DNA from: Escherichia coli
Lineage (GTDB): Bacteria > Pseudomonadota > Gammaproteobacteria > Enterobacterales > Enterobacteriaceae
DNA: 64,000 nucleotides
Assembly: GCF_024298765.1 (NCBI RefSeq)
Contig: NZ_CP101211.1
Reading direction: 5' to 3' (one strand)
The position numbers were made by a program, and so were the translations under genes. Shown here one piece after another: positions 7,577-33,900 of this stretch (position 1 is its first letter; each line of letters begins with the position of its first letter). Below the pieces are notes generated by a model, which saw nothing but the letters and a program-made list of their open reading frames with translations, searched no databases and had not been told where the DNA came from.

Positions 7577-8396
7577 GGCACTGTTGCAAATAGTCGGTGG
7601 TGATAAACTTATCATCCCCTTTTGCTGATGGAGCTGCACATGAACCCATTCAAAGGCCGGCATTTTCAGCGTGACATCATTCTGTGGGCCGTACGCTGGT
7701 ACTGCAAATACGGCATCAGTTACCGTGAGCTGCAGGAGATGCTGGCTGAACGCGGAGTGAATGTCGATCACTCCACGATTTACCGCTGGGTTCAGCGTTA
7801 TGCGCCTGAAATGGAAAAACGGCTGCGCTGGTACTGGCGTAACCCTTCCGATCTTTGCCCGTGGCACATGGATGAAACCTACGTGAAGGTCAATGGCCGC
7901 TGGGCGTATCTGTACCGGGCCGTCGACAGCCGGGGCCGCACTGTCGATTTTTATCTCTCCTCCCGTCGTAACAGCAAAGCTGCATACCGGTTTCTGGGTA
8001 AAATCCTCAACAACGTGAAGAAGTGGCAGATCCCGCGATTCATCAACACGGATAAAGCGCCCGCCTATGGTCGCGCGCTTGCTCTGCTCAAACGCGAAGG
8101 CCGGTGCCCGTCTGACGTTGAACACCGACAGATTAAGTACCGGAACAACGTGATTGAATGCGATCATGGCAAACTGAAACGGATAATCGGCGCCACGCTG
8201 GGATTTAAATCCATGAAGACGGCTTACGCCACCATCAAAGGTATTGAGGTGATGCGTGCACTACGCAAAGGCCAGGCCTCAGCATTTTATTATGGTGATC
8301 CCCTGGGCGAAATGCGCCTGGTAAGCAGAGTTTTTGAAATGTAAGGCCTTTGAATAAGACAAAAGGCTGCCTCATCGCTAACTTTGCAACAGTGCC
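7577..8396 (+). mobile_element. IS26 (820 bp, complete)
   Basis: 14-bp terminal repeats at 7577 and 8383-8396. Confidence 0.95.
7622..8344 (+). CDS. tnpA: IS26 transposase
   Basis: Identical translation to the other IS26 tnpA copies. Confidence 0.95.
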   Translation: MLMELHMNPFKGRHFQRDIILWAVRWYCKYGISYRELQEMLAERGVNVDHSTIYRWVQRYAPEMEKRLRWYWRNPSDLCPWHMDETYVKVNGRWAYLYRAVDSRGRTVDFYLSSRRNSKAAYRFLGKILNNVKKWQIPRFINTDKAPAYGRALALLKREGRCPSDVEHRQIKYRNNVIECDHGKLKRIIGATLGFKSMKTAYATIKGIEVMRALRKGQASAFYYGDPLGEMRLVSRVFEM

Positions 8397-8994
8397 CAAT
8401 TTTGATACCTGATGTATCGACTTTGCGGGGATCTAAACCGTCGAGTTCGGCGTGGCATAAATTGGCACCCTGTAGGCTAAATTGCCCCCAGACATCTTCG
8501 GAAAAAACACCTCGACTTAAGTCTGACTCTTTCAGTGATGCACCCGCTAGGTTCGTTCCTATCCAGCGATTTTCAAACAACTCACATTTTTCTAAACAAA
8601 CCCTCTCCATATTGGCATAGGAAAGATTACATCCAGAAATAAATGCTGAGCAAAAGTACATACGATTACTCACTTGATGGGCAAAGTTTGTTCGGGAAAA
8701 GTTGGCACCTTTTAAATCACACGCACGGAACTCTATACCGTAGCAATTGGCATTACTGAAGTTTGCCATCGCAAGTTGGCATTGTTGGAAACTTGCATCA
8801 CGAAGATCTGCGACATCAAAGTGGCAGCCTTCGATATCACCCTGTTCAATGAACTTGCAGTTGACGAATGTCGTATCACGCAAGTTAGCACGTCGAAAGT
8901 CGCTGCGAATGAATGTGCAAGCGGTGAAGGTGAGATCACTTAAGTCTTTATGTGAAAAGTTGTGGTGCCGATATGTATGATTGTAGGTTTCCAT
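8397..8994 (-). pseudogene. qnrS1: qnrS1 5' fragment (first about 199 codons), interrupted
   Basis: METYNHTYRHHNFSHKDLSDLTFTACTFIRSDF... pentapeptide-repeat protein matching QnrS1; the supplied ORF tail is read-through into the IS26 repeat. Confidence 0.9.
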
Positions 8995-9361
8995 GAGTAC
9001 TCCTTGTTGAAAGGAGGGCTAGACTACCATTATACATATGCCAAGACATTAAAATAAAAGCCTGTTACATCAACACATTACAACCCCTCAATTTACCTGT
9101 TTTAAGTGGTCAAATTGGCGCGTAGAGCGCCTATCGCTCTTGCATTGGCACGCGGCCCTGTTGAAAAAAGTTATTCGCTTTAGATAGGGTTAGGAGAGCC
9201 GTGCTTCGCCGGTAAAAAATCGGACTATCCGACGCAGGGCGGACTCATCGGCGGAGAAGCAAACTTTGACTATATCTCCCTACACTTGGAAGAGGGCTAG
9301 ACTGGCCCCATAGATCACCAGACACTTCGACTCTCTTAAAATAAGAGGTAGTCTTGGAACT

Positions 9362-9553
9362 ATGTTTAATACCAGTCAGAACGATAAGATGGTTGAAGTG
9401 TTATCAGGACCTGAGCGGCGTCGGCGTCGTACACCGCAGGAAAAAATTGCCATTATTCAGCAGACTATGGAGCCCGGTATGACCGTGTCTCATGTCGCGC
9501 GCCTGCATGGCATCAATGCAAACCAGATATTCAAATGGCGCAAGCAATATTAA
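9362..9553 (+). pseudogene. IS2-like orfA with an in-frame TAA stop after codon 63
   Basis: ...QIFKWRKQY* then, in the same frame, [21 protein letters not shown]..., which matches the continuation of IS2 OrfA. Confidence 0.6.
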
Positions 9554-9870
9554 GACGGTTCACTGACGGCTGTTGCATCGGGCGAGGAAGTGGTGCCGGC
9601 CTCCGAACTCGCTGCCGCCAATAAGCAAATTCGCGAACTCCAGCGCCTTCTGGGCAAAAAGACGATGGAAGCCGAGATACTCAAAGAGGCCGTGGAGTTC
9701 GGCCGGGCAAAAAAATGGATTGCGCATGCGCCCTCGTTGCCTGGGAACGACGAATAAGCGACGTTTGCAGAAGTCTTGGCGTGTCGCGTGCGCAGTTGAG
9801 CATTCGGGTTCACCGGCCATCTGACTGACAGGATCGCAGACGGCAGCCCCGTTCTGACGATACCACCGTA

Positions 9871-10413
9871 TTGTCCCGGATAAACATGGCGGTGGCTGAC
9901 CTGCCGACGTATGGTTATCGCCGTGTGTGGGCGCTGCTGCGACGGGAGTCGGAGCGGGACGGCCTGCCTGTGGTTAATGCAAAGCGGGTGTATCGCATTA
10001 TGAGAACGCATAATCTGCTTCTTGAACGTAAACCCGCTGATCCTTGCCGTAAGCGGGCCCATAAGGGGCGCGTAGCAGTAGCGGAAAGTAACCGGCGCTG
10101 GTGCTCAGATGGCTTTGAGTTCCGCTGTGATAATGGCGAAAAGCTGCGGGTGACCTTCGCGCAGGACTGCTGCGACAGGGAGATCATTGACTGGGCAGCG
10201 AGCACCGGAGGCTATGACAAAGAAACGGTGCAGGATGTCATGCTGGGTGCGGTGGAAAAACGCTTCGGAAGGCAGTTGCCAACAGTGCCGGCGTTCGCCC
10301 GGTTGCTGGGACTGGAGCCTTGTACGACAGCAGTGCGAAGCCCGGAAAGCAATGGCATAGCAGAAAGCTTCGTGATGACGATAAAACGGGACTACATCAG
10401 CATCAGGATTTTA
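9871..10413 (+). pseudogene. IS2-like orfB (integrase core), C-terminally truncated
   Basis: ...[23 protein letters not shown] then the Tn3-family repeat; the true orfB start lies upstream in the -1 frame. Confidence 0.7.
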
Positions 10414-10451
10414 GGGGTCTGACGCTCAGTGGAACGAAAACTCACGTTAAG
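10414..10451 (-). repeat. 38-bp terminal inverted repeat of Tn2/Tn3 (tnpA end)
   Basis: GGGGTCTGACGCTCAGTGGAACGAAAACTCACGTTAAG; the tnpA stop lies inside it. Confidence 0.9.
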
Positions 10452-13371
10452 CAACGTTTTCTGCCTCTGACGCCTCTTTTAATGGTCTCAGATGTCCTTT
10501 GGTCACCAGTTCTGCCAGCGTGAAGGAATAATGGCCGAGCATATTGATATGTCCGTGGCAAAGCGGGGAGAGGCGTGCGATATCTTCATCATTCAGTGTT
10601 TCACCCTGCGCCCGGAGATGATCCAGGGCTGCCTGCATATAAATAGTGTTCCATAACACGACGGCGTTAGTGACCAGCCCCAGTGTGCCCAGTTGATCTT
10701 CCTGACCGTCGGTATATCGTTTTCTTATCTCACCTTTTTGACCGTGACAGATGGCTCTGGCAACGGCATGGCGACTTTCTCCCCGATTAAGCTGGGTCAG
10801 AATGCGCCGGCGGTAATCTTCATCATCAATATAATTAAGCAGATACAGCGTTTTGTTGATGCGCCCCACTTCAATGATTGCCTGAGTCAGTCCGGAAGGA
10901 CGTTCACTTTTCAGCAATGAACGGACCAGCACTGAAACCTGTACTTTGCCCAGCTTCAGGGAGCCAGCGGTCCGGATCATTTCGTCCCACTGAAGGACTA
11001 TTTTTCGGGGATCTGATTGCCCTCTGGCAATATCATTCAGCACGCCATAGTCGGCATCATGGTCCATTCGCCAGAAAACCGAAGCACCGGCATCAGCCAG
11101 GCGTGGAGAAAACTGGTATCCCAGCAGCCAGAAAAGGCCAAAGACAAGTTCGCTGGCACCTGCTGTATCGGTCATAATTTCGGTTGGATTCAGCCCGGTC
11201 TCCTGTTCCAGAAGACCTTCCAGCACAAAGATAGAGTCCCTCAGCGTCCCCGGTATAACGATGCCATGAAAGCCGGAATACTGATCGGACACAAAGTTGT
11301 ACCAGGTGATCCCTCTGTTATTACCAAAGTATTTGCGGTTCGGTCCGGCATTGATTGTTCTGACTGGCGTAACAAAGCGCATTCCATCTGCAGATGCCAC
11401 TTCTCCTCCACCCCATATCTGTGCCAGTGGCAGCGTTGCCTGAAAATCAACCAGTCTGGCATTAGCGCTGGTGATAGTTTCAGCCCGCAGATAGTTCGCT
11501 TTTGTCCAGTTCAGCCGGTGTCGGGTCAGTGCAGGAACATTTGATCTGATCAGTGGTTCCAGACCGATATTGCAGGCTTCAGCCATCAGCACGGCGCTGA
11601 TGCTGACGGGCAGATCATCAACTCTGGCACTGGCTTCACTAGCATGGAAAAACTCATCAGCAAATCCGGTATGGGCGTTAATTTCGAGCAGCAACTCCGT
11701 TAAATCCACCGGAGGGAGTAGATCACTGATCATTTTGCTCAGTCGTTTCAGACTGTCCGGCTCATCAAGACTGGCGAGGGGAGAAATTGTCAACCGGGGC
11801 TTCGGGCCAGAAACATCGAGTTCGACAGCCTCATTTTCGCAAAGACGTGCAGCAACCTGTCTGTAACGACTATCAAGCTGATGACCCAGAGATTTTATTG
11901 CTTCCTGCGGGTCTGTCGGGTGCCCCAAAGAACGATAAACCTTAATCCGGTTTGCCTGCCAGTCAGCACCCTGTAGTAATCTTGCACGAGGATCTCCCCA
12001 CCGGTTACTGCCGGTAACGTAGACATCCCTCCGCCTCAGACTATCCTGCAGTTTACTGAGAAAGCAGAGCGTGTATCCCCTGCGGGTGATATGTTTTTCC
12101 TTGTTAATCACCAGCCGTTTCCATGACCGACTGATAATTTCCGTTGGTGCGTCGTCAAAAAACTGCCGCCGTGAGCTGAACTCCCGGCTGAGGTAGTCAC
12201 AGGCATTCAGAGTGGTAACCCCGGCAGGTGCGGATGAAAATTTAACGGTATTCAGCAGATGGGGCAGGAAACGACGAACGCGCCCGTACTGCTCCACCAT
12301 TTCTTCATGAAAATTATCGTCTGAGGGCCGGGCAATTTCACGGACAAGCGTGATGATTTCAGCCAGCTTTTGCCTTGGGATGTAGCTGAACACCTCAGCA
12401 CGAATCGATTCGTCCGGTGTTTCTTCTTTCAGCAGGTACGAACATGCGCTGGCGAGCGCCAATGCAGATTTATCCAGATCCTTCAGCGAGCGGAGCCGTT
12501 TTTTCTGCCCAATCTTTCTGGCGTCACGGATGATAACGGCCAGCATGGCGTCCAGAACGTCCAATGCATCATCCAGCGCCAGCGTTTCCCATGCAAGGAC
12601 AAAGGCAACCAGAACCGCCATCCTTTTCTGCGGTGACATCCTGGCAATATTGAACACCGAAGTCATACCAGCATAACGTGCGAGATTTTTCAGGCGCACA
12701 GCCGGGAGTGTACTCAGGTTTTCAGCATGCAGGCCAAAATCGTTCAGAGTTTTCCAGCGTTCAATTGCTTCATTAAACGCCGGACCACTGATGGTCACAG
12801 GGCCCTTTTTCAGTGATTCCAGTAAAGACAGGCGGCTGCAATCAGTTGGCCCCAGCAGCATCTCCAGCTGTGAACGCTGTTCGGCTGACGGTATCAGTGC
12901 CAGTTTGTTCCACAGGCGCAACGTCGCCTTTTCCCTTACCTCTGAAATCAACCGGGTCAGCGTAGTGGCTCCGGGGAGAATAATACGATGTTGCATAAGC
13001 CACCCTGTCGCCAGATCGAAAAGCAGGCCAGGACGTTCGTTGCTTATCCAGCTCCGGGTATATAAAAGACGGGTAAGGCGAAATGTCCAGGGCCAGGCAA
13101 ATTCACGATACTGATAGTGCTGACGTATCAGCGCTGCATGCTCACGGCGGGTATTTTCCCTCTGACCGTATTCTGCAAGAACGGTGATATCACGAATCCC
13201 GAGCTGTCTGGCGGTAAAATGCCGGACGCCGGAAGGAATATGATTCATATCGGTGAGGAAGGTGCCCAGAAAACGGACACATCCAATTTGCAGGGCAATG
13301 CCCAGACGGTTGTGATCACCTCTGCTTTTTCCGATAAATTCCTTGTCTGCTTCATCAAGGTGAAAATATCG
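10447..13371 (-). pseudogene. tnpA: Tn2/Tn3-family transposase lacking about 27 N-terminal codons (IS6100 insertion)
   Basis: Native sequence begins RYFHLDEADKEFIGKSRGDHNRLGIALQ...; the first 25 codons of the supplied ORF are IS6100 sequence. Confidence 0.85.
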
Positions 13372-28164: not shown

Positions 28165-28704
28165 GTGTTTACACCACCAGCAGATGATGTGAAACCTATT
28201 CCCGTTCCTGATGAGATTTACACTCAGTGCATTACGGATGCCGCCCGCTTCTTCGGAATTGATGCCGAACTGGTTTTTACGTTGTTTGACAATGAAGGCG
28301 GTAAGGTTGGTACTTTCAGCAGGAATACTAACGGCACTTATGATATTGGCCCGATGCAGATCAACTCATCCAATCTGCCTGAAATAAAAAAGCATTTCCC
28401 GACTGTAACGTGGCGGGTTCTGGCTTACGATGCTTGCGCTAGTTTCTGGGTTGGAACATGGTGGCTCTACAGAAAAATTGTTGATCGCAAGGGCAATGTG
28501 TTTGAAGGGATTGCAGATTACAACAGCAAAACCCCAAAGGTACGTGCAAAGTACATATTTAACTTCATGGTAAAGTACAATCGCCGGATCCAGCAGCGTA
28601 ACGGGATGGGTGAGCTTTATCAATGGACCCAACAACCTCCTCGATACAATGGCCATATAGCTAAAAATGTCCCGGAGCAAAACCCGACTCCTGTTGTTAA
28701 ATAA
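28165..28704 (+). CDS. Lytic transglycosylase-like protein (transfer-associated)
   Basis: SLT-like motifs (GPMQIN); size and position typical of a conjugation-associated transglycosylase. Confidence 0.55.
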   Translation: MFTPPADDVKPIPVPDEIYTQCITDAARFFGIDAELVFTLFDNEGGKVGTFSRNTNGTYDIGPMQINSSNLPEIKKHFPTVTWRVLAYDACASFWVGTWWLYRKIVDRKGNVFEGIADYNSKTPKVRAKYIFNFMVKYNRRIQQRNGMGELYQWTQQPPRYNGHIAKNVPEQNPTPVVK

Positions 28705-28786
28705 ATTCAACCTGATATTACAGAAGATCATCGAGTAGCTTGGGTACCCCCCCGCAAAAAATTCGCATAGACTCAGGGGTAATAAA

Positions 28787-29353
28787 TTGTCTTTTTCTGC
28801 AAGAAATATATTTAAGATTCTCTCTTCTTTCTTGATGCAGAAAAGCCCTCTTCATGAAGAAGTATGTGTTCCTGAAGAAACAACAGCTGGTTTATGGGGC
28901 CCTCTCCCTGATTCGCATGTCGTGCTTTTCTTAGATTTCGATGGGGTTTGTCACAGGTGCAAAAATGAAACCTTTGAGCGAATGCCATTGGTGGAAAAAT
29001 TACTGGATAAATGCCCTTCCATGGTGATTGTCATCTCCAGTTCGTGGCGTGAATGTGCCAGTATAACTTACCTGAAATCTCTTTTCCGGCTACCTTATAG
29101 AGACAAAGTCATAGGTGCTACCGATTCGGTATATTTAAAACCTAATCAGTCAGGTGTGCGGGCTGCTGAGTGTGAGGACTTTGTATTTTCACATCGAGTT
29201 AAAGCATTTATCTGCCTTGATGACGACGAATCATTATTCCCGGTCGGTTATCCACATTTGCAAAAAACCAATTATTACACCGGCCTCACCGAATCTGATC
29301 TTGCAGCTCTTAACACCAGGTATCATCTGCTTATGAAACGTTGGGCTTCCTGA
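28787..29353 (+). CDS. HAD-like hydrolase-fold protein, function unknown
   Basis: VLFLDFDGV matches HAD motif I (DxDG). Confidence 0.45.
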   Translation: MSFSARNIFKILSSFLMQKSPLHEEVCVPEETTAGLWGPLPDSHVVLFLDFDGVCHRCKNETFERMPLVEKLLDKCPSMVIVISSSWRECASITYLKSLFRLPYRDKVIGATDSVYLKPNQSGVRAAECEDFVFSHRVKAFICLDDDESLFPVGYPHLQKTNYYTGLTESDLAALNTRYHLLMKRWAS

Positions 29354-29356
29354 ATT

Positions 29357-29368
29357 AAAGTAACTTTT
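29357..29368. repeat. Backbone palindrome copy (12 of 13)
   Basis: AAAGTAACTTTT directly after the HAD-like gene stop. Confidence 0.7.
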
Positions 29369-29460
29369 ACGGAGAGCATGCCCGCATTATCAGTTCTATG
29401 CTTCTCCATTTCTGCCCCGGGTCAAAGCATTGCACAGTTGGAAGAAAACATGCCGGTCTC

Positions 29461-30750
29461 TTAAGCTTGCTGCTCAGTTTGGTTCCGGTGCTGAAAAACC
29501 TGCCAACGGTGCTTTAGGAATTCAGTATTGATGGGTTTACGCAGCGGCTTAATAAACTCTCCTTGATATGCCGCTAAATCATGATCTACCGCCAAAGCTT
29601 CAGCGAGAATGTTAACCTCCAACGTCACCGGATGAATGGCAATCATGTTTGCGTCGAAAAGATCGTGTATATCATGGCGTAAGAGCAACCCATTTGTATA
29701 ATGGTCTACTCCTCCGTTACGATGCTCCATCAGATGAGCAGCCTCAGTGCGCTGGCGCAGTCTAGAGCCTGTAATCACACATTGGTCATAACAGTTGTTG
29801 CGGACGGCTTCTGCAAATGAGGCCTGATCTGGTCGTGTCTCGACAGTTGTCTTACTACCCTTACGCTTACCCGGTACAGTAGTTTCATCAGGAATATTCG
29901 GCTGAAGCTCCTTTTCTTCTATACCATCAGTCTTCATAGCGACCATAATCGCGGCCGGTGGAGATTTAGGCTGATCTTCCTGCGATCTTTCGCGGCCACC
30001 AACTGGATACCCTAGAAAACCCTCAATGATCTCTAGTGGAGGTAATGTAGCGTTTGAACGTGCATAAATAGCGAACTCTGCGGCACGTCCGCCGGGAATA
30101 TATCTACGTACCAGTATTGGAAGAGAGGCTTCTTCATCTGGTTCCTCTTTTTCCGACAGGATTATTCGTTCGGTGAGACGGGCTGAATTTTTTTTCATTT
30201 CACTCAACAGTCTATTGCGTTCTTTTACCTTTCGGTCATTATCCTCCAACATCTTACGATGACTAACCTTAGCCAGATGGTCTTCCAGTTCCTGTATATA
30301 TTCGGGATCGATAGTATCAATTAGACCGAACGCCATCAACCGCTCCCCCCTTGTTTTACAAGATTCTAGCCGAACGCGAATGTACTCCTTACGCTTGGCC
30401 ATCAAATGTTCTTTTTGTTTTTTTTCTCGAATTACACGGAGCTGAGTATTGTAATTAGAATAAACGGTTTCGCTATTCTGCTCTGTCTCTAGAGCAAATT
30501 TTTGTAGGTGTTCACGTAGTTTTTTACGGGTATTTTTGGGGGCATGCATTACGGTACGCTCAATGTATGAGCCTGTGCAGCGTAAAGAAAGTACAGTTTC
30601 AGCATGGGAATAACCAGCATTGAGACGATAGCGGGCAATTTTAAGCAAATTATTAAAGTGTGCACCATTACATATACCTAGTTCTTCCAAGACACGACGT
30701 TCTCTATCATTAATAGATGGATGGTTAATATCTTTTACTTTGTTTGCCAT
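29461..30750 (-). CDS. HNH-endonuclease-domain protein with a long charged N-terminal region
   Basis: C-terminal CYDQCVITG...AHLMEHRNGGVDHYTNGLLLRHDIHDLFD is an HNH-type motif; the N-terminal 300 aa are Lys/Glu/Arg-rich. Confidence 0.6.
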   Translation of the reverse strand: MANKVKDINHPSINDRERRVLEELGICNGAHFNNLLKIARYRLNAGYSHAETVLSLRCTGSYIERTVMHAPKNTRKKLREHLQKFALETEQNSETVYSNYNTQLRVIREKKQKEHLMAKRKEYIRVRLESCKTRGERLMAFGLIDTIDPEYIQELEDHLAKVSHRKMLEDNDRKVKERNRLLSEMKKNSARLTERIILSEKEEPDEEASLPILVRRYIPGGRAAEFAIYARSNATLPPLEIIEGFLGYPVGGRERSQEDQPKSPPAAIMVAMKTDGIEEKELQPNIPDETTVPGKRKGSKTTVETRPDQASFAEAVRNNCYDQCVITGSRLRQRTEAAHLMEHRNGGVDHYTNGLLLRHDIHDLFDANMIAIHPVTLEVNILAEALAVDHDLAAYQGEFIKPLRKPINTEFLKHRWQVFQHRNQTEQQA

Positions 30751-30833
30751 GTCCTGTGTCTCAGTGCCTATTCAGCCGGAACATCTACTACATAAAGAAC
30801 GAGATTGTACAGAAATCAGCTAAGTTTATGAAT

Positions 30834-30864
30834 AAAAAAGGCCGCAAATTTATACTTTGCGGCC
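30834..30864 (-). terminator. Rho-independent terminator after trhG
   Basis: GGCCGCAAA / TTTGCGGCC stem followed by a T-run on the minus strand. Confidence 0.65.
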
Positions 30865-30930
30865 TTCACTGTTTAACACCATATTTTAGTAAATACGTTT
30901 AATTTTCATTAGGTTATATTTGAAACTCAC

Positions 30931-33900
30931 CTACCTTTTATTTTCATTAAGCCACTGATCCGCTTTATCGACACGTGACTGGTAAGGCTCATTTGTGTTG
31001 CTCAGCTCTGACTTCATGTACTGAATGAATTCATCTGCTTTCTGAGGCCCAAAGCGTGGGTCATCCGTCAATTGCTGCCGGATAGCCCTTTCAGAGTTCT
31101 GCGCTGCATTCGCATAAGTCGAAACGCCGTCGCTGCTAATACTCTGATACCGGTCACTTACAGCTGCGACGCCATCAGACATCTGCATGTGATTAAGGAC
31201 TTTACCCTGGAGAGAATCAGGCATATTTGCAGGGTTAGAGGCATCATTTGCTATCGATGTCTGGGTTTGAAGGATGCCCGCTCCCGTAAGCATCTCATTT
31301 ACCGGTTTCGCCCCAACGCTGGTTAGCGTATCCGAAACAAATTGCTGGCCCCCGAGTAGCGCACCAGAAATCGCGCCCCGCTCAGTGTTGGCCTCTATCT
31401 TTTCCCCAACCAAGCGATCTGTGACGGTCTGAGTGCGGTTACCAACGAGACCACCGCCCGACCCACCCTCTCCTAGGTTTGCCCGTACGACTGACTCAAG
31501 TGAACCATCAGCTCTGTTATGAGTGTTGAAACTGCTATGGATGCTCTGAACGTCATTCATACTCCAGTTAACGTTATAGTTACCCAGTTCATTAAGGATC
31601 TTCTGGGTATCCGCTTTGAGCTGCTCTCTTTCGGCACCGGTAGCCATGGTGCTGGCACCATAGGTAAAGACAGCTTGCTGTGCCAATTCAGCTCGCTTAT
31701 CGTCCCGGCTTAAGTTCGGGTTGTTGGCAACACGACTAAAGTAGTTATCAGTGTTATTAGATAAGCCACGAACTTGACCGCTCTGATACATACTGTTCAA
31801 AGCAGTGGCTCGTTGATCCATTCCATCACCAACCACCCGACCTCCGGTAGCCTTTTCCAGATCGTTAAATGTGCCTTCTGCATTTCTGACATCCTGACCT
31901 GAATTGACGACTTTCTCTACACCCTGATTATTCAGTACAGGGCCATTCGTTTTGAGAGAATTGAGCACATTCCTTTCTTCATCAGAATAAGTGCGGCCCA
32001 CGTTGTTGTTATGTATTCCCTGAATATCGCCTTTGCCCGCGTTATCAAGGTTATACGGAGTAAAGCCAGCTTCACTTTTTCCAGGGACACGCTGAGTCGC
32101 GTCCTGAGCGTTGGAGGAAAGACCGAGTTTAGCCTGCGAATCAACACTTCCACCCAGTTCCCCTACGCGTGACGCACTCATCACGCCAGACGTATTTACG
32201 CTGTCAGGAGTTCTATCCTGTGCCTGAGTGATAGTATTAATTCCTGACCCTTCGCCTGAAATTCTGTCGAGCTGATTGGTGATAGGTAGCAGCTGCTGTG
32301 CATTACCACCGAAGTCGGAAACCAGACTTTTAAGCAGGCTGGAGGTTTCACGGAGATCCTGTTTATTACTTTCGGCCGTCTCTCCCCGGGCGGTATCAAT
32401 CGCAATTTTTTGCTCACTGAAATCTCGTGTTGCAGCCACAAGCGCGTCAGTACGTTGAAGCTGCGAACCAAGCTGATTACTGGCCTTGAAGGTATCGTTA
32501 TAGGAGTTGAATTTCTCCATAAACGCATTCTCATCCAGCCCATTCTTACGAGCAAAATTCCTTACATCATCATCACTGAAGTTTTTGTTGCGAATAGAAT
32601 CGGAGAACCTGTCCAGGTTAATGCTTTGTTTAGAATCAAGGCTCATTCCACTATTGGAGCTGGCGTTAGTCGATACCGATGTAGAAATGTTTTGCGCCAT
32701 CGTCTGTGTCGCCTGGTTCATTTTCGACGATGCTTCTTTAAACGCATTAGTATTGGATATCTGATCGCTGCTTACCTGAGACGCCGCTTTACTGAACTGG
32801 TCAGTCAAAGCAGAATCCTGGCTAAGCTGATTCGTGATTGCTTTTGAAAGGTCATTTGAAAGCGAGTCACTGCCTGTATTGGTCTTAGATGCGCCGCTAC
32901 TCAATTGCCCTGCTACAGCTGCTTTCAGCCCGGCTCCGTTGCCAGTTCCAGCACCTCCATTAAGCCCAGCGTTTAGAATAACATTTGAAGCAATGCTGGC
33001 CATCTGAGACGCACTCACCCCATGTTTCGTTGCAATACCTTCTGCTACAGAGGCACCAATCTTATCCGAGATCTGCTTCATTGTTTGCAGGTTGGTTGAG
33101 AACTGCTGGCTCGACTGTCCTGACCTTCCAATTTCACTCATCTGACTGTAACCAGCCTGGAATGAATTACTTGCCGCACTCATAACTGATGAGGTTACAG
33201 CTGATCCTTGCCCCTGGCTGTTAGCGATACTTGAACCAGCATTCCACATTCCAAGACGGAAATTACTTGAATCAACTGCGCCGCCATCGCTGTATCCCTG
33301 ACCGGTACTGGTCAAGGCGGTTCGTGTCACGTCACCAAATGAAGATTTACCGCTGTTAGGGCCATCCCATACTTTGGGCGTTACATGACCAGTATCCACC
33401 GGCGCATCGGGGGTCACTCCCTTAACCGCATTCATCATCGGGTGAATCGACTGTGTCATCAGGAATAATGTGAGTACCGGAATCAGAGCATAAAGCGCGG
33501 AAGCAACAGACAGGTATGAACTGTATGTTTCCGCAAGCCCTGGGAGCCCCATCCACGTGACGGCATTATTCTGGCTGTTGAGGGTGCTCCAGGTATCCAG
33601 ATCGGCCGTCGCGACTTTCTTCACATACGCGTTGACCATTACTGCCGTAAGCGGCCACATATTCACGAAGAGAATAAGTTGCAAATATTTCGCCGCAGCG
33701 GCAACACCATTACCACCTAACGCCAGCAGCATAAGCAAAGCAAATGGAGCAACCATGTAAGCAAACATCTCAAGGAATGCGATTGCTGCTCCAGACAGTT
33801 GTAACCACAACTGGCCCTGTGAAGCCATTGTGTTGGTTCGCTTCAGAGAAGCCTCAAACAACTGCATATCGGAAGCCAGACCGAGTGGGGTCTTATATTT

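Follow-up and report, generated by a model that had tools for sequence, protein, structure and literature searches.

A stand-alone HNH_2 nuclease with an orphan N-terminal region in a replaceable slot of IncHI2 plasmids, a candidate for restriction-like interference

The window analysed here, a 64,000-nucleotide stretch of Escherichia coli DNA (NZ_CP101211.1) recognised by megablast as IncHI2/IncHI2A plasmid backbone (MOBH, MPF_F), harbors, where the Tra2 transfer region ends, a gene for a 429-residue protein with a C-terminal HNH nuclease domain. We find that this gene is accessory cargo in a swappable slot of the plasmid, and not a transfer gene. As for its product, we tentatively favor, with a confidence somewhat short of even, a stand-alone restriction-like nuclease that interferes with phages or rival mobile elements. 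An initial annotation, made from the letters of the window, had suggested an abortive-infection or exclusion effector; a defence or exclusion role stands as the best reading, by inference from the restriction-type domain and the defence neighbors of relatives, whereas the abortive form is only one of its rivals.

Nuclease domain, N-terminal region and relatives

The C-terminal HNH motif proposed in the initial annotation is borne out by a match of residues 324-373 to Pfam HNH_2 (PF13391; E 3.6e-10), with R306, P307, D308, Q309, H339, N353, H362 and D366, among others, being invariant in 15 family members. All the key positions of the beta-beta-alpha-metal motif of His-Me finger nucleases are filled: the catalytic His, the Asn, and the His and Asp that act as metal ligands. 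When a profile of the domain was compared with solved structures, one significant match was obtained, to residues 184-261 of 6YEX (E 1.6e-7), the dimeric EVE-HNH modification-dependent restriction enzyme VcaM4I (PMC7897488). The tested catalytic residues of that enzyme, H224, D250 and D254 (PMC7897488), align with H339, H362 and D366. Moreover, HNH_2 has been grouped with AlwI, BbrI and HphI as 'group 6' type II/IIS (PMC5714182), and a wider search with the domain profile recovered hundreds of short stand-alone proteins with the source label 'predicted restriction endonuclease'. Weak domain-level matches included 'HNH' and 'Type II restriction enzyme' of PADLOC and 'PT-DNA restriction endonuclease' of NCBIfam, while the PHROG matches of the protein were to families of unknown function and covered the C-terminal domain only. 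The C-terminal 137 residues are hence an intact HNH_2 nuclease domain of restriction-enzyme type. Homology to a homing endonuclease or to a known transfer protein, which had been named at the outset as contrary evidence, was looked for and not found.

The remainder of the protein had been described as some 300 Lys/Glu/Arg-rich residues of probable coiled coil. This proves too simple. K, R and E together account for 30% of residues 1-300 and 37% of residues 71-200, and an AlphaFold model built on the family alignment (mean pLDDT 70.8) divides the protein into five parts: a four-helix module modelled with confidence (residues 10-70, approximately), a pair of long helices (72-130 and 149-194), a small domain of helices at about 205-248 with F226 and F245 invariant, a disordered linker that is acidic and Pro-rich (253-309, pLDDT below 50), and finally the nuclease. 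The linker varies in length as well as in sequence across the family alignment. Residues 71-200 have an isoelectric point (pI) of 9.7 and only a weak heptad signal in a single register, and these charged helices are probably an oligomerisation stalk. The nuclease gene is already annotated generically in databases. The N-terminal region resembles nothing known; no sequence or fold relatives of the N-terminal 290 residues were found outside their own small family.

This family is small and confined to mobile elements of Enterobacterales, to which all members with an organism name belong. When a profile of the N-terminal region was searched exhaustively against 1.84 billion representative proteins, only 31 clusters were recovered, and every full-length member ends in HNH_2; fusion of the N-terminal module to another effector was sought in the word-indexed and exhaustive profile searches, which gave HNH_2 only. 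The module is nevertheless joined to two different HNH_2 subtypes, 'RPDQ...CVITG...EAAHLxEH', as in the window, and 'QRD...LEAAHIE...NASNG'. Conversely, the window-type nuclease domain also occurs with other N-termini, in a few phages and in a 285-residue paralogue of IncHI plasmids. This paralogue (WP_000784387), present in IncHI1 and IncHI2, shares 44% identity with the window protein over the nuclease domain, but its N-terminus is different and unassigned; its loci lie outside the window, at 5224-6405 of L015 (IncHI2 plasmid pC16_001) and at 130191-130604 of pHCM1 (NC_003384.1), and in the IncHI2 example a 102-residue open reading frame (ORF) precedes it and an hns-like gene adjoins. In two further relatives, P0058 and P0064, the linker that joins the small helical domain to the nuclease is enlarged by some 45 inserted residues ('..EYRSTRAAMEALGIGEDKHAREFR..W..GK.Y..'); judged by eye only, the insert looks like the NUMOD1-type motif with which homing endonucleases bind DNA.

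Some relatives adjoin known defence genes. On an Enterobacter element (L003), a member has Septu on one side (PtuA, E 3e-137; PtuB, E 4e-41) and on the other a full-length PifA (E 2e-238) that is next to ccdAB, and in a Salmonella island another adjoins hsdMSR, a type I restriction-modification system, and a NERD helicase. Elsewhere the neighborhoods differ: a conjugative plasmid has its member after the coupling protein gene of the type IV secretion system and convergent with ardC, a Serratia plasmid between two replication genes, and members are also found in integrative elements. Still others belong to phage-plasmid-like elements of about 100 kb, which we take to be SSU5/pHCM2-like; there they either have a GpA-type terminase and portal nearby or form part of a block of DNA-metabolism genes (Dam, RNase H, DHFR and ThyA). 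Two of these relatives are two genes away from the terminase, others in such elements are not. Neither a universal partner gene nor a conserved neighboring methyltransferase was detected across the contexts of the relatives examined.

In one subclade only, the nuclease gene is directly preceded by a gene for a 91-residue protein (L003 7716-7988, L005 7725-7994 and L019 6723-6998), with 41-80% identity among the three. At L019 this protein accompanies the same N-terminal region joined to the different HNH_2 subtype, which suggests that its function is linked to the N-terminal part. The notion that it is a split copy of the N-terminal module was ruled out, and the partner is not present in the window. 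In the Enterobacter element, the region 7716-11697 comprises the 91-residue ORF, a 423-residue family member and an 86-residue ORF upstream of pifA, with ptuAB 6 kb off. The member thereby occupies, with its two small ORFs, the position of the repressor gene pifC in F (compared over L018 6446-9761). Homology of a family member to PifC of F was not detected, the window protein is no PifC homologue either, and pifA was not found in the window.

A replaceable slot and allele exchange

That a 429-residue HNH gene converges on a HAD-like gene, as the initial annotation had it, agrees with the ORF list and with RefSeq, where identical plasmids carry a 'HAD domain-containing protein' and an 'HNH endonuclease signature motif containing protein'. 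The protein is 100% identical to WP_001284752 and to the cluster representative P0001. A gap of 107 bp separates the two convergent genes, and trhG lies 180 bp upstream of the nuclease gene. With trhG, the HAD gene, a lytic transglycosylase gene and a DsbC-like gene as its neighbors, the gene is indeed stand-alone and has no adjacent methyltransferase, and a second copy was not found within the window.

The region 28700-30950 is matched at at least 99% identity by 523 PLSDB plasmids. Against an R478-type IncHI2 plasmid (L002), blastn homology ends at 29343, just past the palindrome described below, and resumes at 30834, at the trhG terminator. The intervening R478-type cassette (L002 9769-11346) encodes instead a 353-residue HNH protein (WP_000902297), which ends in a PF01844-type HNH motif and strongly matches two PHROG families without assigned function, and 10 nt downstream a YrhA-family protein (WP_000654195; NF038335, E 2e-36). 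It is oriented opposite to the window nuclease gene, and sequence comparison revealed no homology between the two HNH proteins. The R478-type pair looks like a nuclease toxin with YrhA as immunity partner; thus, both known occupants of the slot encode nucleases. About 520 plasmids have the window cassette versus about 430 with the R478-type one, the latter mostly from Enterobacter. In IncHI1 R27, the HAD gene and trhG converge directly across 246 bp and the slot is empty, whereas within IncHI2 it is always filled, by either of the two cassettes or by a divergent allele, of 402 residues in the divergent IncHI2-like plasmid L008. The nuclease gene is accordingly not conserved across IncHI transfer regions, being missing at this locus in R27 and in R478-type plasmids.

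The 28700-30950 region also attracts insertions across plasmids. One plasmid (AP026508.1, hit H15) has an insertion of about 1.3 kb in it, and in pS54 (L023) an IS5 element splits the nuclease gene, PLSDB still predicting this plasmid as conjugative from its sequence. An mcr-1 transposon has furthermore been described between the DsbC gene and an 'HNH endonuclease' in an IncHI2 plasmid (PMC5748712).

Comparison of the window with L008 sheds further light on how the gene has evolved. DNA identity is 85-94% through the flanks and the nuclease-domain codons (88-94% in the nuclease-domain DNA); in the promoter and the N-terminal 290 codons it drops to 44-73%. We estimated synonymous divergence (dS) and the ratio of non-synonymous to synonymous change (omega) for this pair by the Nei-Gojobori method. 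The nuclease domain (residues 293-429; dS 0.30, omega 0.35) has a dS like those of trhG (dS 0.34, omega 0.05), the lytic transglycosylase gene (dS 0.28, omega 0.10) and the DsbC-like gene (dS 0.49, omega 0.045), whereas in residues 1-250 synonymous sites are saturated (pS 0.66-0.81) and omega is not meaningful overall; in the small helical domain it is also clearly below 1. The backbone-like dS of the nuclease domain and the saturated N-terminal sites therefore indicate that the N-terminal half and promoter were swapped for those of a distant allele. The nuclease domain, by these estimates, diverged together with the plasmid, while the N-terminal half was replaced; such modularity is typical of conflict genes. 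Furthermore, the protein is under purifying selection, weaker than that on the transfer genes, and truncation is rare, 508 of 518 matches at at least 95% identity (about 98%) having the full length.

The initial annotation had also credited the gene with a promoter region of its own. The trhG terminator is directly followed by a sigma-70-like site (TTCATA-17-TACAAT) about 55 nt upstream of the nuclease ATG; since a terminator and then a promoter-like site precede it, the gene probably has its own promoter, plausible at the level of a consensus match. The N-terminal coding half and the promoter (30200-31000) are AT-rich, with a GC content of 0.36-0.42 compared with 0.47-0.52 in trhG, which fits separate acquisition and possible H-NS silencing.

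A possible interference nuclease and its alternatives

If the protein is a restriction-like interference nuclease, it might operate as follows. The HNH_2 domain would cut DNA, as its homology and intact catalytic residues suggest, and the charged helices would pair two protomers so that both strands are cut, with the HNH domains themselves probably dimerising too, as in VcaM4I. The four-helix module, or modules, and the small helical domain would recognise a feature of foreign DNA, for which a modification or structure absent from host and plasmid, or a foreign nucleoprotein, are candidates, and would keep the nuclease, tied to them by some 50 residues of flexible linker, inactive until the feature is encountered. 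Incoming phage DNA or a rival element would then be destroyed, protecting plasmid and host, and exchange of the N-terminal half between alleles would alter recognition. No methyltransferase would be required, because the enzyme, like those of type IV, would not recognise host-type DNA. It is conceivable, albeit rather doubtful, that the N-terminal region is a new type of sensor and forms with HNH a previously unrecognised single-gene immunity or interference system, the specificity of which would be re-set by swapping of the N-terminal half, as between the window allele and that of L008.

By analogy, the protein would work most like a two-domain type IV restriction enzyme. VcaM4I and other type IV enzymes of this build (EVE-, SRA- and SBD-HNH, for example ScoMcrA-like) belong to the same HNH clade with equivalent catalytic positions, and have in common with it the order of sensor, linker and nuclease, a single gene without methyltransferase, and carriage on mobile elements. 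They differ in possessing a PUA/EVE/SRA, sulfur-binding or winged-helix reader, in place of which the window protein has its orphan region, entirely helical and with long charged helices, followed by a disordered tether; because it is without a recognisable modified-base reader, we do not file it as a type IV member. The HNH_2 enzymes of group 6 type II/IIS (AlwI, BbrI and HphI; PMC5714182) are of the same Pfam family and likewise have a recognition part separate from the cleavage domain, but they come with a cognate methyltransferase, none being adjacent in the window, and with unrelated recognition domains. The R478-type cassette shares the slot, between palindrome and trhG terminator, and also encodes a His-Me finger nuclease, yet differs in its unrelated sequence, the PF01844 HNH in a toxin-like protein, the YrhA gene that follows and its opposite orientation. 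Terminase-associated HNH proteins of the HK97 gp74 type are small and encoded next to the terminase and portal genes, whereas the window protein has 429 residues and no packaging genes nearby. The protein fits neither a type II system, there being no methyltransferase, nor a recognisable homing endonuclease, a toxin-immunity pair or a transfer protein.

Several observations weigh against interference as the function. The weakest point is that there is no recognisable sensor fold: no modified-base reader (PUA/EVE/SRA/YTH, sulfur-binding, winged helix or NEco) was recognised in the N-terminal region. How an unpartnered nuclease spares its host is not accounted for either. PADLOC-DB v2 matched generic 'HNH' models only (E 1.7e-5 and 0.029), with no system-specific defence model beyond the nuclease domain, and no experimental report on the protein, its accessions or any family member was found in the literature. 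The contexts are mixed as well, with several relatives outside defence islands and two near phage packaging genes. Lastly, the phage-inhibition phenotype of IncHI2 has historically been tied to the ter region, judging by the title of a cited reference.

An unlikely alternative is an abortive-infection or addiction effector, the N-terminus of which would sense a phage or plasmid protein and release the HNH domain to degrade all cell DNA, so that the host dies. That one gene stands alone and joins an orphan, sensor-like N-terminus to a nuclease on a tether is congruent with this, and VcaM4I without its sensor and linker becomes a toxic non-specific HNH nuclease (PMC7897488). One relative is moreover located directly upstream of the classical abortive-infection gene pifA, and the alternative slot cassette resembles a nuclease toxin with an immunity-like YrhA. 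Nothing was seen, however, that points to a protein trigger, and the nuclease gene has no antitoxin or immunity gene beside it, no candidate ORF being found in the 107-bp or 180-bp flanks and no significant match in an Rfam search of the flanks. Sequence evidence cannot separate such an effector from a restriction-like nuclease.

Similarly improbable is a selfish free-standing homing-type endonuclease that cuts the empty or alternative slot and is copied in by repair, with no benefit to the host. The gene is free-standing between conserved genes and has a promoter and a terminator to itself; its slot, empty in R27, is taken by different nuclease genes in sister lineages, and family members sit at differing intergenic positions in related phage-plasmids. 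The N-terminal modules, long linker and nuclease recall tethered I-TevI, and two relatives have the linker insert that by eye is NUMOD1-like. Enzymes of the I-TevI/I-HmuI type are alike in being free-standing, modular and long-linked, and the slot of the window gene has empty and occupied versions among relatives. They nonetheless belong to another HNH clade, have the reversed domain order and use NUMOD, AP2 or zinc-finger modules, which the window protein lacks; the HNH_2 clade is one of restriction enzymes, and the window protein has no Pfam match to HNH_3, NUMOD or AP2. The long oligomerising helices of its stalk are atypical of homing enzymes. Furthermore, variation within IncHI2 is not a simple matter of having or lacking the gene but consists of divergent alleles at a single locus, both cassettes replace an identical segment between conserved flanks, which fits ordinary homologous exchange, and some relatives reside within defence islands.

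We regard as very improbable an accessory of plasmid DNA processing or establishment, for instance a nuclease acting during conjugation or afterwards, in donor or recipient, or a DNA-binding regulator with a retained nuclease domain. Its position directly after trhG at the Tra2 end, the member directly after a coupling protein gene and convergent on ardC, and the Serratia member between replication genes favor such a role. On the other hand, R27 and R478-type IncHI2 plasmids both conjugate, and the gene is missing from them; a strong terminator stands between it and trhG, and it is interrupted by IS5 in the natural plasmid pS54, which PLSDB predicts to be conjugative, and relatives occur in non-conjugative contexts. 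Least probable is a functionless hitch-hiker, an intact-looking but inactive remnant on a recently expanded plasmid lineage: the approximately 520 near-identical copies, an omega of 0.35 against 0.05-0.10 for backbone genes, and occasional insertion sequence disruption and truncated fragments are in line with it (although the intactness of the copies says little, because the backbone is clonal), but the catalytic residues are invariant across a family diverging to about 30% identity, omega is well below 1 in the nuclease and small helical domains, and nearly all copies are full length.

Flanking features and relevance for IncHI2 plasmids

The 188-residue HAD-like protein matches HAD_SAK_2 (PF18143, E 9e-20), and its translation reads intact HAD motifs, DFDGV (motif I), SSS and DDD (motif IV). 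HAD_SAK_2 is a Pfam family defined in RNA-repair proteins. The gene is conserved across the IncHI1, IncHI2 and IncHI1B-type plasmids examined, downstream of the lytic transglycosylase gene in IncHI1 and IncHI2, and its divergence from L008 (dS 0.17, omega 0.44) indicates weak constraint. The initial annotation had proposed checking whether the pairing of HAD-like and HNH genes is conserved in related plasmids; it is not. R27 has the HAD gene without the nuclease and R478-type plasmids have it beside the different cassette, and among the contexts examined no other member of the nuclease family has a HAD neighbor. A functional pair was thus rejected: since HAD is IncHI backbone and the nuclease accessory, their pairing is an accident of the insertion site.

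The palindrome AAAGTAACTTT, reported to have a copy in the 107-bp gap, is found there as described, 4 nt past the HAD stop codon. In the window AAAGTNACTTT is present at 14 sites, giving 28 strand-matches versus 1.19 +/- 1.10 in shuffles; for the 13-bp palindrome aAAAGTnACTTTt the count is likewise 14 in the 64-kb window compared with about 0.6 sites expected. Seven of the 14 sites lie outside ORFs, another two reach no further than the last bases of one, and several are intergenic, as judged with a crude ORF caller (ORFs of at least 100 residues). A copy is kept just after the HAD stop codon in R478-type IncHI2 (L002), the divergent L008 and R27, the HAD/trhG gap of R27 holding two. A link to the nuclease gene can be dismissed, as the palindrome has the same place in R27 and R478-type plasmids, both without the gene. 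It was present in every IncHI-related locus fetched (including L002, L008, L015, L016, which is R27, and L017; IncHI1, IncHI2 and IncHI1B-type are represented) and in none of the unrelated loci, and is therefore an element of the IncHI backbone and not part of the nuclease gene. It looks like an operator or binding site for some IncHI backbone protein; a mention of it in the literature was not found. The remainder of the convergent gap contains an imperfect stem-loop, which may be a weak bidirectional terminator. The minimum-free-energy fold of the gap is -18.8 kcal/mol on the plus strand and -23.0 on the minus strand, and a terminator scan made no call at the stem-loop. The features of the locus are collected in Table 1.

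Table 1. Coordinates of the nuclease locus and of the palindrome copies, as positions of the window
Feature	Position	Strand	Basis or remark
HAD-like gene, 188 aa	28787..29353	+	ORF list
Palindrome copy aAAAGTnACTTTt, left edge of variable cassette	29357..29367		
Replaceable cargo segment of the HAD/trhG slot	29368..30836		homology to R478-type IncHI2 lost here
Imperfect inverted repeat/stem-loop in convergent gap	29371..29407		without clear U-tract
Nuclease gene, 429 aa	29461..30750	-	ORF list, Pfam, RefSeq; stop codon 29461-29463
HNH_2 nuclease domain, restriction type, residues 293-429	29464..29874	-	
Disordered acidic Pro-rich tether, residues 251-292	29875..30000	-	pI 4.4
Small helical domain, residues 201-250	30001..30150	-	motif VRRYIPGG..F...F(L)G
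Two long highly charged helices, residues 71-200	30151..30540	-	conserved R-L-x-A-F/W-G motif
Orphan four-helix module, residues 1-70	30541..30750	-	tandem pair in many relatives
Sigma-70-like promoter candidate for nuclease gene, TTCATA-17-TACAAT	30804..30832	-	consensus match only
trhG intrinsic terminator, 12-bp stem and T-run	30837..30867	-	right edge of cassette; common to R478-type plasmids
trhG, TraG_N family, 1317 aa	30931..34884	-	ORF list, RefSeq; conserved right flank of slot
Palindrome 11-mer, start positions	24799, 26363, 27264, 29357, 36269, 38888, 39329, 39814, 43237, 44675, 46405, 51307, 56356, 56482		window

Should the gene prove to have no phenotype, it would be one more uncharacterised accessory gene. 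The family is nevertheless a compact and testable example in which a nuclease of restriction type is coupled to an unknown sensor, with a natural domain swap in hand. If the N-terminal region is indeed a new sensor, the resulting system would be one spread by IncHI2 resistance plasmids, including mcr-1 carriers, by other conjugative plasmids, integrative elements and SSU5-like phage-plasmids, and the 91-residue partner of one subclade would travel with the sensor, not with the nuclease. In E. coli, Salmonella and Enterobacter, resistance genes including mcr-1 and fosA3 are carried to a large extent by IncHI2 plasmids, of which roughly half have the window cassette and the other half the different nuclease cassette. 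If the nuclease blocks phages or rival plasmids, it would bear on phage therapy, on plasmid competition and on the host range of IncHI2.

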